Shown here piece by piece: positions 10,731 to 29,866 of a DNA stretch of 37,915 bases. The notes below the pieces were generated by a model. The model saw only the letters and a list, made by a program, of their open reading frames with translations. It made no database searches and was not told the origin of the DNA. Position 1 is the first letter of the stretch; each line of letters starts with the position of its first letter. Source of the stretch: a virus (taxonomy: Duplodnaviria; Heunggongvirae; Uroviricota; Caudoviricetes); IMG/VR virus record IMGVR_UViG_2778261269_000005, positions 1 through 37,915 of that record. One strand, written 5' to 3'. The position numbers were made by a program, and so were the translations under genes.

Positions 10731-11066
10731 TCAGGCGTGGCTGATGGCACTTCCCACAAACGCGTTGGCTTTTTTCACCGCATCCACCGAATCCGGCCAG
10801 ACCAGCGATTCGGTGGCAAACGTACCGCTTTTGTAGTACGTCAGTGTGGGCTCGGTCCCGGCCAGCGCCAGTACCAGCACCCCCACAGCCGTTCCGGCTT
10901 TCTGACCATCCCATGCCACCAGTTTTCCGCTGGCGTCATCCAGCATCAGTGGCGTCAGTGAAGGCGTGGCAACACTGATACCACTGGTACCTGTTGCGGT
11001 ATATACCGGATCGCTTCCGGCAAAAATGCGCCCGTCCGCGCGCTTTTCTGTGGTGGTTTTAATCAT
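10731..11066 (-). CDS. D: head decoration protein
   Basis: Start set at ATG 11066 (AGGAGA RBS); 111 aa; motifs TPLMLD, KLVAWDG, YKSGTF as in lambda gpD. Confidence 0.85.
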   Translation of the reverse strand: MIKTTTEKRADGRIFAGSDPVYTATGTSGISVATPSLTPLMLDDASGKLVAWDGQKAGTAVGVLVLALAGTEPTLTYYKSGTFATESLVWPDSVDAVKKANAFVGSAISHA

Positions 11067-11106
11067 TTTCTCAGTCTCCTGATTTATCTGAATCACGGAT
11101 CCCCGC

Positions 11107-12723
11107 TTACGGCATACTCATCAGCAGTTCTTCTTCCCCGTTCCCGGCAGTTCCGCCACCGGAAACGGCACTGGCGGCATGCTGTGCCATGAAGCGCTCA
11201 AAAAGTGTTACCTGTGACGGTTGCGATACTGATGGCGCAGCTGCCAGCAGCGTTTTCGCCTGCTCCACTGTCATTCCAGGTTGTTCAGCCAGCGCCTGTG
11301 CCAGTTTTTCGCGTCCTTTTGCTTCCGGCAACGCAATAATTTGATCGCCGGTACTTGCCGTACCGGTTGCCGGTGCCGCTACCAGTAGCATTTTCGCCTG
11401 TTCCACCGTCATTCCCGGCTGTTCAGCCAGCGCCTGTGCGAGTTGTTCACGCCCTTTTGCTTCCGGAAGTGCCATAATCTGCTCGCCGGTACTTGCCGCA
11501 CCGGAAACCGGTGCCGCTGCCAGTAACGTTTTCGCCTGCTCCACCGTCATTCCCGGCTGTTCAGCCAGCGTCCGTGCCAGTTGTTCACGCCCTTTTGCTT
11601 CCAGAAGTGCCATAATCTGATCGCCTGTGCTGTCAGTACCGGCAACCGGTGCTGCCGCCAGTAATGTTTTTGCCTGCTCAACTGACATTCCCTGCTGACC
11701 TGCCAGCATCTGCGCCAGTTTTTCGCGTCCTTTCGCCTCCTGACAATTCAGGATCCCCATCACGCGCTGATTTTCCTGGGACACCGCTTCAGCAACGGTG
11801 AGATTTTTTGTTGTCATCGTATTCTCCTGTGTAACAGAGTCGTTCAGAGCAGAAACCATTACATCAACGGCATCTGCAGCATTAATCAGTTGATCAGCCA
11901 GGCCTATATCAATGCCTGCCTGACCGTCATAAACGGTAGCCTCGGTATTCATCACCGCCTCTGAACTCAGCCCCGTATAAAGCGCCACCTTGTCGACAAA
12001 CATCCGGCGGGCCTCATCAATACGGCGCTGAAAATCCGCACGCACACCTGTCGGCAACGCCTGAATACTGTTGCCGTCAACCTTGTGCTGCCCGGAGTAA
12101 ATCAGCGTGATATCCACGCCTTCCTGTGCCAGTTGTTTCTCGTAACTGGTGTGCGCCATCATCACACCAATCGAACCAATTTTTGCCGTCTGCGTGACCA
12201 GCCGACGCGTACAGGCCGCCGCCAGCAACATGGCGGCTGAACAGGCCATGTCATTACACAGCGCCCACACGGGCTTCTGTTCCCGCAGACGGTAAATCAT
12301 GTCAGCACAGTCAAACGCCCCGGCAGCCTGACCACCCGGACTGTCGATATCCAGTAAAATGCCGCGTACATCCGGGTCGTTCACCGCTGACTTAAGACGG
12401 GCAGTCAGACCGTCATAACCGGTCATACCGGAATATGGCCGCAGGGTACCCATTTTATGTACCAACGTGCCGCTCACCGGCAGAATGGCAATACCATTTT
12501 TCACCTGGTAACTCTTTACCGGACGCGGACCACCAGTCATATAATCGGTAACCGCCAGCTGCATACCATCGGCATCAAGCTGAACGGCCTGCTGCGGAAC
12601 GGCAAGGTTGCCCGCCCCCATCTCCTTACCCAGTGCGCAAAAGAAAACCCGCGCATAGGCGGGTTCCAGTAAAAGCGGCTCATTAAATGCCATCGCGGCA
12701 ATATGTGATAAATTACAGCGCAT
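11107..12723 (-). CDS. C: prohead protease / scaffold (S49 peptidase, C/Nu3-type) with internal tandem repeats
   Basis: 538-aa ORF; N-terminus MRCNLSHIAAMAFNEPLLLEPAYARVFFCAL is lambda C-like; S49 peptidase region; C-terminal part holds repeated 46-aa units. Confidence 0.85.
   Translation of the reverse strand: MRCNLSHIAAMAFNEPLLLEPAYARVFFCALGKEMGAGNLAVPQQAVQLDADGMQLAVTDYMTGGPRPVKSYQVKNGIAILPVSGTLVHKMGTLRPYSGMTGYDGLTARLKSAVNDPDVRGILLDIDSPGGQAAGAFDCADMIYRLREQKPVWALCNDMACSAAMLLAAACTRRLVTQTAKIGSIGVMMAHTSYEKQLAQEGVDITLIYSGQHKVDGNSIQALPTGVRADFQRRIDEARRMFVDKVALYTGLSSEAVMNTEATVYDGQAGIDIGLADQLINAADAVDVMVSALNDSVTQENTMTTKNLTVAEAVSQENQRVMGILNCQEAKGREKLAQMLAGQQGMSVEQAKTLLAAAPVAGTDSTGDQIMALLEAKGREQLARTLAEQPGMTVEQAKTLLAAAPVSGAASTGEQIMALPEAKGREQLAQALAEQPGMTVEQAKMLLVAAPATGTASTGDQIIALPEAKGREKLAQALAEQPGMTVEQAKTLLAAAPSVSQPSQVTLFERFMAQHAASAVSGGGTAGNGEEELLMSMP
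11233..11739 (-). repeat. about 3.7 in-frame tandem copies of a 138-bp unit inside the protease/scaffold gene
   Basis: TTTTCGCC(TG) recurs at 11253, 11391, 11529 and about 11667 (period 138); protein shows repeated AKGRE(K/Q)LA...GMTVEQAKTLLAAAP...STG(D/E)QI(M/I)AL(L/P)E units. Confidence 0.8.
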
Positions 12724-14284
12724 CGCCTTTTTCTCCCGTTGTCTGTCGGATCTGCTGTTGAAACGCGTTCTTTATCCAGACCGGACGCGGAAGACCGGCA
12801 GCCTGTCGCTCCTGAGTTTCCCGTAGCTGCTGGCGGAAAATCTCCTGATAGTCATCCCCCATCAGGGCCAGCTCTTTCTCGTATGTACTCAGGCCGCCTT
12901 CAATGCGCATCACCGCTTCCTGCACTTCCTTAAGGCCATCAATCGCCATACGACCGGCACCAATCCACTCGGCACGGCACCACCCGGAACGAGCCTCCCA
13001 GAATGAGAAACGGGATTTCGGCGGACGGATCACACCACGAATAAGGGCTTCCTCCAGCCAGCAGGCAAACATCTGTGACGCCAGGCGACTGGCCACAAAT
13101 TTTCGTTTTCCCATAAAATACCGCCACGACTCATTGGCGGATGCCCTGGCACTGGAATAACTGACCTGTGAATAATCCCGGGAAAGCTGCTCATACGACA
13201 CACCCAGTCCGGCAGCAATGTAACGTAACAGCGCCTTTTCCAGTTCAGAAAAACCATTATCCGCATTCTGGGCTGTCTGCAGATTCAGTGAATCTCCCGG
13301 GTAAAGATGCGGAATACGGACCCCGCCCAGTTTTACCGTATTGGTGGCGTAATAACGCGCGTAGCCTTTCATGATGGTGTTCAGGGGATTTTTACCTCCA
13401 TCTCCCACCCCGGCGATATATTCAAACGCTTTTTCCGAATCCAGTGTGGATTCAATCGTGGCGGCATACATGGCGCGAACCACCGCCGACTGCAGTTGCG
13501 TGGCCTGCAGTGTGTCGAGCATCTTGAGACGCTCCATTACAGAATAAAACTGGTTGGCCCCGCGGGTCTGCCCGTCTTCCTGTGGCTGAAACACATGGAT
13601 CATTCCCGGTCGTCCGGAAGGCAGTGTTGCCGTAATTCGTGTCCATTTACTGACACCGTAGCCGGGCCAGTCATCATCCTGAACATGGTAGGCCAGCGCT
13701 TTTCCGTGTCGGTTTATTTCCACCCCGGCACGCATAAAACGATCGCCGGTACCATAACCGGGTGTACTGACACGCTTCGGGCTGATGGTTTTGAATTTCG
13801 TCCGGAATAATGACGTGGATTCCGCATCCCATACGGGCTGGACAAAAATTTCACCGTTAAACGTATGGACCCCCACCCCTTCACGAATAAATTCGGTAAA
13901 CGAACGACGCCCTTCCACATCCATCGTACCAAACACCGGATCGCAGTATTCCATCCACGCCGCCTCAACATCTTCAATAAAAGCATGTGAATCTGCTTCC
14001 GACATCCCCAGCCAGCGCCAGTTGGGACGGTAACTCAGACGAAACATGTGCCCGACAATATGATCCTTATGAATTTCCACTGCATTCGATGCAATACCGT
14101 TGTTACGGACCAGCTCATCCGCGCGGGCGTTACCCAGATGAATGGAAGGTAAGAGCGCCACGTCGGCACTTTCCGGTGCAGGCAGCCATTCTGCCATTTG
14201 CCCACCGAACCCGGAACCACCACCAGAATATCCCATGCTTTGCCGTAAAGGCTGCCCATGAATATCCACCAGTTCCCCGTTCAC
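12713..14284 (-). CDS. B: portal protein
   Basis: 523-aa ORF between terminase/W and the protease, lambda gpB-like. Confidence 0.85.
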   Translation of the reverse strand: MNGELVDIHGQPLRQSMGYSGGGSGFGGQMAEWLPAPESADVALLPSIHLGNARADELVRNNGIASNAVEIHKDHIVGHMFRLSYRPNWRWLGMSEADSHAFIEDVEAAWMEYCDPVFGTMDVEGRRSFTEFIREGVGVHTFNGEIFVQPVWDAESTSLFRTKFKTISPKRVSTPGYGTGDRFMRAGVEINRHGKALAYHVQDDDWPGYGVSKWTRITATLPSGRPGMIHVFQPQEDGQTRGANQFYSVMERLKMLDTLQATQLQSAVVRAMYAATIESTLDSEKAFEYIAGVGDGGKNPLNTIMKGYARYYATNTVKLGGVRIPHLYPGDSLNLQTAQNADNGFSELEKALLRYIAAGLGVSYEQLSRDYSQVSYSSARASANESWRYFMGKRKFVASRLASQMFACWLEEALIRGVIRPPKSRFSFWEARSGWCRAEWIGAGRMAIDGLKEVQEAVMRIEGGLSTYEKELALMGDDYQEIFRQQLRETQERQAAGLPRPVWIKNAFQQQIRQTTGEKGDAL

Positions 14285-19912: not shown

Positions 19913-19989
19913 TGGAGAGCGGGTGGCGAGAATCGAACCCACATCATCAGCCTGGAAAGCTGAGGTAATAGCCATTATACGATACCCGC
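19913..19989 (-). tRNA. diverged tRNA-Gly(UCC)-like gene, possibly a pseudo-tRNA
   Basis: Minus strand reads GCGGGTATCGTATAATGGCTATTACCTCAGCTTTCCAGGCTGATGATGTGGGTTCGATTCTCGCCACCCGCTCTCCA: cloverleaf with GGTTCGATTC T-loop and UCC anticodon, but a 7-66 mismatch, wobbles in the T-stem and no clean CCA. Confidence 0.55.
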
Positions 19990-28903: not shown

Positions 28904-29866
28904 TTATCCCCTGAACCCTGGCGGAATTTCGGTGTCCGGTTCAGAAATGTGATTCACACAACGCTGTACAGGCGAACGTCCCAGACGAATAACCAGCTCA
29001 TCCCATTTTTCGCGAAGCTTTGACGGGCTCATGACGTTTTTTACCCAGAATGGATCCCGTTGTACCCGACTGAACATTTCGCAAATTTGCCTGTGAGTTC
29101 TGCCATCCAGCATCCGCATTGTGCGCACGTCATTGGCCCATGCGGTCCAGTTGGGTTCTTTCGGTCGCGTAATCTCGCCATCATCGCTGGCAGCCTGTTC
29201 GTAAAGACTCACGATTCGCCACCAGATCCACTGCGCACACGTCAAATCTTCCTGAGTTCCCCACTGGCGTTTTTTCACACTGAACACAACCGCATCAGGA
29301 TGACGGGTTAAAAACGCCTGTTCAGCTGTCTTCTCGTCCGGTTGCGAAGTTTCCGGACAAGAAGATCTTTTATCTGACGGATCAGGTTTTAATACTGACG
29401 GATCGGGGCCAACCATCGCCCCCCTAACCGGCTGTTTTTTATCAACGGTTGATCCATCAGAATTTGACGGGTCAACCGTTGAGGGGTCAATATTTGACGG
29501 GTCAACGGTTAGCGGGTCATTTTTTGCCGGGTTAATTTTTCTTTTCGGTTTATATGCCTCACGCGCCGCCGCTGCTGCTGCTTCGAGTTTTTCCACATTA
29601 AGACGGTAGATATTGCTTTCATTACGCCCACCGACCTTACGTTCCTCCTTCGTCAGCCAGCCGTTCTTTTCCAGTTCAGCTATCGCAGCTTTAACCGTTG
29701 ATTCACTCTTTGCCCCAATCTGACGACGAATGGTCTCCACTGCAGGCCATGACACACCTTCGTCATTGCTGTAGTCTGCAAGGCGAGCCATTACTGCCAC
29801 TCTGGATAAGATCATGCCTGTGAAGGCACACCCTTCCCAGACAAGACCATGAAGCTTACTGCTCAT
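28904..29866 (-). CDS. replication initiator (lambda O-like; wHTH N-terminus, iteron-encoded repeats)
   Basis: 320-aa ORF; wHTH-like N-terminus (STVKAAIAELEKNGWLTKEER); internal VDPSNIDPSTVDPSNSDGSTVD repeats coincide with DNA iterons. Confidence 0.65.
   Translation of the reverse strand: MSSKLHGLVWEGCAFTGMILSRVAVMARLADYSNDEGVSWPAVETIRRQIGAKSESTVKAAIAELEKNGWLTKEERKVGGRNESNIYRLNVEKLEAAAAAAREAYKPKRKINPAKNDPLTVDPSNIDPSTVDPSNSDGSTVDKKQPVRGAMVGPDPSVLKPDPSDKRSSCPETSQPDEKTAEQAFLTRHPDAVVFSVKKRQWGTQEDLTCAQWIWWRIVSLYEQAASDDGEITRPKEPNWTAWANDVRTMRMLDGRTHRQICEMFSRVQRDPFWVKNVMSPSKLREKWDELVIRLGRSPVQRCVNHISEPDTEIPPGFRG
29466..29537. repeat. replication origin iterons (five GGGTCAA-type repeats at 15-bp spacing) plus adjacent AT-rich tract
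   Basis: GGGTCAA/GGGTCAT/GGGTTAA at 29469, 29484, 29499, 29514, 29529, followed by TTTTTGCCGGGTTAATTTTTCTTTTCGGTTTATAT. Confidence 0.6.

Follow-up and report, generated by a model that had tools for sequence, protein, structure and literature searches.

A prohead protease/scaffold gene of the lambda C/Nu3 type with four tandem copies of a scaffold module whose number varies among relatives

Introduction

Why should a phage gene for a prohead protease carry the same stretch of sequence several times over near its 3' end, and is the repetition a matter of the protein, of the DNA or of the assembly? The question is raised by a locus in a 37,915-nucleotide stretch of viral DNA, the whole of which is called the window here. 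In relatives annotated by PGAP the gene is listed only as 'S49 family peptidase', with neither a nested scaffold ORF nor a repeat feature. We asked what the gene encodes, how many units the array holds and where they begin and end, how the units evolve, how their number differs between relatives, and what a multiplied unit might do in a growing prohead.

Results

The array lies in a C/Nu3-type protease/scaffold gene

The array is in frame within a 538-aa ORF on the minus strand. Upstream of this ORF is a lambda-family portal gene, and downstream of it are the head genes for a D-type decoration protein and an E-type major capsid protein (Table 1). The long product matches PHROG 53 ('head maturation protease', E 8e-220) and contains a Peptidase_S49 domain, whose Ser162 aligns with Ser166 of lambda C, reportedly the catalytic serine (Medina et al. 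2010). NCBIfam returned only sub-threshold SppA/SohB matches, to the protease part. The gene is 99.9% identical to that of E. coli OkiPb01716 (WP_040092341.1), whose entire late operon is annotated, and in essence the window is an E. coli lambdoid prophage. In the phage collection that we searched, no isolated phage carries this allele; the best matches there are phage 21-type genes, which align over the protease part only at 73% identity.

Inside the gene, AGGAG-N6-ATG at 11828-11815 forms an in-frame internal start signal. Three diverged alleles from E. coli have an equivalent purine-rich box and ATG, as does phage 21, in which the box is the annotated ribosome-binding site of gene 6, and the same nested arrangement is annotated both for nu3 in lambda and for gene 6 in phage 21. 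The 236-aa product that would start here aligns with lambda Nu3 (BLASTP, E 4e-17 and 3e-13), and PHROG 8399 ('head scaffolding protein') covers the last 237 residues of the long protein in four matched stretches (E 6.6e-52). From this start signal we infer that the gene yields a second product, a nested 236-aa scaffold. The S49 domain, the neighbouring head genes, the PHROG matches, the nested start and the Nu3 alignment together show that the C/Nu3-type prohead protease/scaffold label, proposed in an earlier reading of this DNA made from the sequence alone (the sequence-only reading), was the right one.

Table 1 Features of the protease/scaffold gene and its neighbours (window coordinates)
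Feature	Position	Strand	Details
Lambda-family portal gene	12713..14284	-	PF05136; 11-nt overlap with the beginning of the protease gene
Lambda C-type prohead protease/scaffold gene, 538 aa	11107..12723	-	ORF; Pfam, PHROG; 'S49 family peptidase' in RefSeq relatives
S49 peptidase domain, aa 146-290	11854..12288	-	Pfam Peptidase_S49 PF01343, E 9.5e-33
Shine-Dalgarno AGGAG	11824..11828	-	6 nt upstream of the nested ATG
Putative nested in-frame Nu3-like scaffold ORF, 236 aa	11107..11817	-	aa 303-538 of the long product; ATG at 11817
Unit 1	11626..11763	-	aa 321-366
Unit 2	11488..11625	-	aa 367-412
Unit 3	11350..11487	-	aa 413-458
Unit 4	11212..11349	-	aa 459-504; linker differs and runs into the conserved C-terminal tail
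C-terminal tail	11110..11211	-	aa 505-538 (..LFERFMAQH..LLMSMP); can be aligned to the C-terminal end of lambda Nu3
D-type head decoration gene	10731..11096	-	PF02924; downstream of the protease gene
E-type major capsid gene, 342 aa	9633..10661	-	PF03864; identical to WP_000522659.1

The array encodes four complete 46-residue units

Tandem Repeats Finder places a tandem array at 11240-11740 (period 138, 3.6 copies, 84% matches, 0 indels, score 638), which is the sole repeat of period above 30 across the 37.9-kb window. An independent repeat search returned three overlapping copies of 234 nt, at 11234, 11372 and 11510, with a spacing of exactly 138 nt. Both tools and the reading frame thus confirm the in-frame 138-bp array that the sequence-only reading had described. 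Its bounds were given there as 11233-11739, and the full extent is slightly wider when counted as 46-aa periods, which together run from 11212 to 11763 (aa 321-504).

Two other parts of that description needed revision. A profile of the unit identifies four full units, at aa 324-359, 370-405, 416-451 and 462-497 (E ~1e-24 to 1e-25 each), so that at the protein level there are four complete 46-aa units in place of the ~3.7 copies counted before; DNA-level tools arrive at ~3.6 because unit 1 is the most divergent. The copies had also been called near-identical, which is overstated, since pairwise DNA identity ranges from 58 to 91%. The upper value belongs to units 2 and 3 (dS 0.12), which are the youngest or most recently homogenised pair, and the other pairs are 58-73% identical overall and 68-84% in the 39-codon core. 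Unit 1 retains the signature GILNCQEA, common to the single unit of lambda and to Tri1 of phage 21. The linkers are the least conserved part, that of unit 4 having only 5-14% of its nucleotides in common with the others. The repeats do lengthen the protein, as had been claimed: lambda C has 439 aa and one unit, phage 21 gp5 has 501 aa and three, and the window protein has 538 aa and four.

No Pfam family covers the 46-aa module. Pfam matches to Peptidase_C23, Bac_DNA_binding, T2SSK, HTH_15 and DUF732 do fall in the repeat; no stretch of them passes the threshold by itself, all except Peptidase_C23 are also under the curated cut-offs, and we treated them as low-complexity or helical noise.

Each unit is predicted to be a small helix-loop-helix

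AlphaFold2 modelled the whole protein from a 41-sequence alignment with a mean pLDDT of 65. In this model every unit consists of a short helix and then a helix-loop-helix (pLDDT 70-80), and the linkers have pLDDT values below 50 (aa 360-364, 405-410, 452-455 and 499-508). A model of a single unit has a helix at residues 2-20, a loop, and a second helix at 28-37. With mean pLDDT values of 65-66 the models are of moderate confidence, and they do not agree about an interruption of the first helix at the conserved Gly-Arg. Across diverse units the conserved residues are I4, E9, A10, G12, R13, A17, L20, A21, P24, M26, A31, L35, A37 and P39, which give the core consensus I-x4-EA-x-GR-x3-A-x2-LA-x2-P-x-M-x4-A-x3-L-x-A-x-P, and the linker is made up of 7-10 residues of Pro, Gly, Ser, Thr and Ala. 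The unit is thus predicted to be a small helix-loop-helix followed by a flexible linker, with the array resembling beads on a string.

Searching PDB sequences with the unit profile gave chance-level matches only (best E 0.24), and the best Foldseek match of the single-unit model in the PDB had an E of 4.3, the model being small and moderately confident. Medina et al. are said to have reported in 2011 that lambda gpNu3 is largely intrinsically disordered in solution, which would be a poor fit with a stably folded module.

The units are maintained as protein

Between units, dN/dS is 0.19-0.28 at a dS of 0.85-2.0, except for units 2 and 3, which have barely diverged (dN/dS 0.78, dS 0.12). Comparison of the window with an 88%-identical orthologous allele gave dN/dS values of 0.05, 0.20, 0.26 and 0.13 for units 1, 2, 3 and 4, which makes unit 1 the most constrained. 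For the same pair of alleles, dN/dS is 0.15 over all units versus 0.08 in the protease domain. Each unit is therefore under purifying selection and is maintained as protein.

These values bear on the idea that the repeat is a DNA- or RNA-level element, such as a set of regulatory sites, a promoter or a recombination signal, which lies in a coding region only incidentally. The 2022 phage 21 record could be read in its favour: on the basis of pattern matching, it annotates one CII-binding site on the other strand at the start of gene 6 and another at the start of the second Tri box. However, the repeat and its surroundings contain no TTGYN6TTGY site, and the window as a whole has 8, compared to 8.8 expected by chance; promoter-like sites are likewise absent, and terminator-like sites are at background level. 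Furthermore, the divergence between units is concentrated at synonymous sites, which indicates that it is the protein that is conserved. We find an element of this kind hardly credible.

Copy number changes by whole units among relatives

Among the best 120 homologues, proteins with three units (74) and four units (40) are the most frequent, and we also found two proteins with two units, two with five and one with six. The 538-aa four-unit form is recorded in E. coli, E. marmotae, E. albertii, Citrobacter and Salmonella. Of the complete E. coli genomes, 106 have a close match to the 894-bp 3' segment of the gene, and the 60 matches listed for them sample the full identity range, 83-99.9%. Nearly all of these 60 span exactly 894 bp; the span is 885 bp in five and 756 bp in one, PapRG-04-4. 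In this complete genome the allele encodes 492 aa and three units, and it equals that of the window minus one clean 138-bp in-frame deletion, with a junction within sequence common to units 3 and 4 and flanks nearly identical to the window. Another relative (P0004) also has one unit fewer, with a different junction, between units 2 and 3. Gains are seen as well: two proteins (P0001 and P0002) have five units through an exact duplication of unit 2, and in a phage 21-type protein (P0066) the fourth unit is a Tri3/Tri2 hybrid.

Could the repeat number simply be an artefact of assembly, with units collapsed or expanded? Short-read assembly can in principle go wrong at repeats of 138 bp, and the three-unit cluster P0004 comes from short-read Logan assemblies only and may itself be an assembly collapse. 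Against this, the 894-bp span is constant in nearly all of the 60 listed matches from the 106 complete genomes, at identities from 83 to 99.9%, the four-unit form recurs in the other species and genera named above, and even units 2 and 3, the most similar pair, differ at 9% of positions. The assembly hazard raised in the sequence-only reading is thus a weak concern, and we consider an artefactual copy number most improbable for the window; together with a DNA-level element it is effectively excluded.

The gains and losses described above bear the marks of unequal homologous recombination, or of slippage, between units. The sequence-only reading had predicted that recombination might vary the repeat number and had suggested a comparison across relatives. 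That comparison shows gain and loss of whole units with junctions inside homologous segments, including the 138-bp in-frame deletion, and three-, four- and five-unit alleles among close relatives, as predicted. The four-unit architecture is nonetheless stable over alleles that have diverged to 83%, and the locus is not hypervariable.

The history of the units differs between lineages. In the three-unit lineage, which includes phage 21 and proteins from Salmonella, Klebsiella and Citrobacter, most units are closest to the unit at the same position in another genus, and units within one protein are 50-65% identical; an Edwardsiella protein departs from this positional pattern. The positional orthology and the low identity within proteins indicate an old triplication. 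In the window lineage the units of a protein are 76-89% alike, which points to recent duplication or gene conversion.

Copy number appears independent of the capsid-protein sequence

The PapRG-04-4 deletion allele offers a comparison in a nearly constant background. The major capsid protein encoded beside it has no differences from the 342-aa protein of the window, and the decoration proteins of the two differ at one residue. An identical capsid protein is thus found with three and with four units, which argues that copy number is not co-adapted to the capsid-protein sequence. Provided that both prophages are functional, the number of units thus seems independent of the capsid-protein sequence and is unlikely to set capsid size. 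Because one capsid protein goes with either number, the additional units may also be close to neutral and have no function of their own.

Another possibility is that the units act as a flexible spacer or length ruler, in which case the total length of the scaffold chain would matter and not any discrete binding module. Lambda Nu3 (201 aa; one unit and a long low-complexity N-terminal stretch) and phage 21 gp6 (200 aa; three units and a short N-terminal stretch) are indeed nearly equal in length despite their different make-up, and the linkers are predicted to be disordered. However, scaffolds of three inferred lengths (~190, 236 and 276 aa) are found side by side among close relatives, and the three- and four-unit forms share the same capsid protein. 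In addition, the core of the unit is conserved across Proteobacteria, with the fourteen positions of the consensus given above invariant or nearly so, and the dN/dS values of 0.05-0.26 represent more constraint than a mere spacer would need. A pure length function is therefore improbable in our view.

One module is the common state across Proteobacteria

To place the array in a wider context, a profile built from 25 unit sequences was searched against 1.84 billion cluster representatives, of which 1018 match at E<=1e-3. Within the best 150 of these 1018, the module is present once in 137 proteins, twice in nine and three times in four. Proteins of at least 380 aa have a single copy in 56 of 57 cases, and for the most part it lies 33-63 aa before the C-terminus. 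A Peptidase_S49 domain is present in nine of the ten large matches that were sampled, or in eight if an N-terminally truncated 342-aa match is left aside; the tenth, which has no such domain, and two of the nine resemble chimeric gene calls.

Genomes were also scanned, one per species, and of the 78 loci with an uninterrupted reading frame 62 have one unit, 11 have none and five have three. The single-unit loci are found in Enterobacterales, Vibrio, Photobacterium, Pseudomonas-like genera, Marinobacter and its relatives, and some Alphaproteobacteria, and those without a unit include short proteases of ~285-306 aa. All of the three-unit loci are from Enterobacterales (Escherichia, Shigella, E. 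albertii, Trabulsiella and Providencia). Because a single copy is common across the scanned loci, we regard it as ancestral and the multiplication as derived, having arisen in enterobacterial phages. Across the family, the copy number ranges from 1 to 6.

Discussion

We are very confident in the structural and evolutionary description of the four-unit array. The reading that we prefer goes one step beyond it: the array is a four-fold amplified, protein-interaction module of a Nu3-type scaffold, which is expanded and contracted by unequal recombination. To description and mechanism taken together we assign a probability of roughly 70%. In this reading, the array is a tandem multiplication of the only conserved folded module in the scaffolding domain of the lambda Nu3 type, and the 538-aa protease and the putative 236-aa scaffold both end in the same four modules and the conserved tail. 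The module would be the protein-contact element of the scaffold. Its most likely partner would be the major capsid protein, with the portal or the scaffold itself also possible. By analogy with the scaffolds of P22 and phi29 (below), a scaffold or protease chain with four copies would have a higher valency and could make up to four contacts in the procapsid before its degradation by the protease, and the linkers would provide reach and probably protease access. We put this valency mechanism, with the module as a protein-contact element, forward tentatively, at somewhat less than even odds.

The units might instead be cassettes for self-association, for portal recruitment or for cleavage by the protease, rather than binders of the capsid protein. 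As one example, the linkers could be gpC cleavage sites at which the scaffold is chopped into small peptides able to exit the shell. Published lambda data list contacts of Nu3 with Nu3, B, C and E, which are not assigned to regions, and the regular Pro/Gly/Ser/Thr linkers are exposed in the predicted model. However, none of our data favour one partner above another, and the linkers are the least conserved part of the unit (as low as 5-14% of nucleotides in common for that of unit 4), which argues against a conserved cleavage motif within them. We consider such cassettes unlikely, if worth keeping in mind.

The protein-interaction reading could be taken further in two directions. The module may be the docking element for the capsid protein (or portal) in all S49-type protease/scaffold proteins, with copy number setting the valency; as a general rule for the family, we find this doubtful. 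More speculatively, host defences able to detect prohead protease or scaffold proteins might exert selection on the gain and loss of units.

These results change no current concept. Their main value is a better annotation, together with a natural allelic series for studying the role of the Nu3 module, which has no Pfam family although it is the sole conserved folded element of Nu3-type scaffolds across Proteobacteria. The multiplied module is an ordinary feature with a copy number that is variable between close relatives. What is added here is a four-unit, partly homogenised lineage with natural three-, four- and five-unit alleles in an otherwise near-identical background, which is well suited to studies of the module's binding partner and of the importance of valency. 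If the docking reading is true, the natural series of one unit (lambda), three units (phage 21) and three, four or five units (the window lineage) would serve as a test of multivalent contacts between scaffold and coat, and it could be used to probe how T=7 procapsid assembly is driven and proof-read.

Comparison with known systems

The scaffolds of P22 and phi29 contact the N-arm of the capsid protein by means of a helix-turn-helix element. P22 gp8 and phi29 gp7 resemble the window protein in having a small helix-loop-helix element within a scaffolding protein, and the analogy is one of mechanism only: PDB searches detected no sequence or fold relation between the window unit and a P22-type scaffold domain. 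Furthermore, these scaffolds are not fused to a protease, and they have one such element in place of a tandem array.

The relationship to lambda is one of homology. Lambda C is an S49 protease with Nu3 nested in frame, encoded between the portal gene B and D/E, and Nu3 bears the same module (..IMGILNCEEAHGREEQARVLAETPGMTVKTARRILAAAP..) and a related C-terminal tail. In contrast to the window protein, lambda has a single module, and ~40 additional residues, rich in Ser, Thr and Ala, precede it. This single copy aligns to unit 1 when its upstream context is included and to unit 4 when its downstream tail is included. The homology and this dual alignment indicate that the window array arose by internal multiplication of the single module seen in lambda.

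The closest precedent is phage 21. Its head operon record, GenBank M81255.1, for which Smith and Feiss 1993 is reportedly the source paper, has three repeat_regions in gene 6 that bear the names 'Tri1 box', 'Tri box' and 'Tri3 box' and, in every case, the note 'function unknown; putative'. The Tri boxes are left without annotation in the phage 21 record of 2022, and our literature search on the Tri boxes and on tandem repeats in scaffold/protease genes found nothing relevant. Phage 21 genes 5/6 agree with the window gene in position, in the S49 protease, in the nested scaffold start and in a repeated unit with a period of ~46-47 aa. At the DNA level the protease parts are 73% identical, and over the 37-residue core unit 1 has 81% identity with Tri1. 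The unit profile recognises the three phage 21 units (E 8e-24 to 1e-21) as well as the four of the window (E 3e-25 to 2e-24). The two proteins differ in that phage 21 has three units compared to four here, and its units, at 54-57% identity within the protein, are old and diverged, whereas those of the window are 76-89% alike. Thus the feature is not new in kind, as homologous repeats were already recorded in the phage 21 entry, and it is the four-unit lineage that is added here.

Mosaicism of the protease/scaffold gene

We compared the S49 prohead protease/scaffold gene of the window with the three-unit allele in the complete E. coli genome PapRG-04-4 (L005, NZ_CP049201.1). The first 960 nt contain 59 differences (94% identity), while from the nested start, the internal ATG that opens the predicted Nu3-like scaffold ORF, to the end of the gene there are nearly no differences apart from a 138-bp deletion. 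The gene is a mosaic with respect to PapRG-04-4, and the change from a 94% identical 5' part to almost identical sequence suggests a recombination breakpoint close to the protease/scaffold boundary.

Coordinates of features in the window and in L002, a phage 21 record in which gene 6 is the nested scaffold gene
Feature	Coordinates	Strand	Remarks
Protease/scaffold gene	window 11107-12723	-	
tRNA-Gly, anticodon TCC	window 19917-19989	-	prophage-borne
Cluster of 15/30-bp repeats, TTGACGGGTCAAC-type	window 29442-29532		inside 320-aa ORF, 28904-29866 (-)
CII-binding site	L002 (OL657228.1) 2391-2404	antisense to gene 6	pattern match, 2022 annotation
CII-binding site	L002 (OL657228.1) 2625-2638	antisense to gene 6	pattern match, 2022 annotation

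Related genes in other assemblies

In the one-genome-per-species scan, eight loci (L078, L079 and L082-L087) carry short S49 prohead proteases, about 285-306 residues long, that lack the 46-residue scaffold module, and the scaffold there is presumably encoded by a separate gene downstream. The hosts are Chromobacterium, Pseudomonas, Paraburkholderia, Roseomonas and a Rhodospirillales MAG. At L022-L028, L030 and L031, lambda-type C genes of equal length and equal score occur in assemblies of unrelated organisms, on contigs that are short or of very low coverage, some of them about 48 kb with a coverage of about 1. These genes are probably lambda DNA contamination; the assemblies include Neobacillus, Oceanobacillus, Shewanella, Pseudomonas, Kitasatospora, Chromatium, Leeuwenhoekiella and an Akkermansia MAG.

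Several database proteins (P0145, P0149, P0161, P0043, P0044 and P0046) are fusions in which unrelated phage domains are attached to the module or to the S49 domain, and in P0044 the three-unit block is present twice, giving six units. The fusion partners are terminase ATPase, tail protein L and tape measure, and one protein is named 'baseplate assembly protein V'. They probably stem from chimeric assembly, chimeric gene calling or prophage rearrangement and, unless checked, are not to be taken as real architectures.

Other elements of the prophage and comparison with phages 21 and lambda

The near-identical prophage of E. coli OkiPb01716 also has an annotated tRNA-Gly, flanked by a DNA methyltransferase gene and holin genes.

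One of the two CII annotations in phage 21 lies where gene 6 begins, the other where the second Tri box begins. Because a pattern search of the window found the CII pattern at chance frequency, and not within the 138-bp repeat, both annotations are probably chance matches.

The TTGACGGGTCAAC-type repeats are palindromic in part and read in protein as a repeated DPSxVD peptide; they look like origin iterons within a lambda O-like replication initiator gene.
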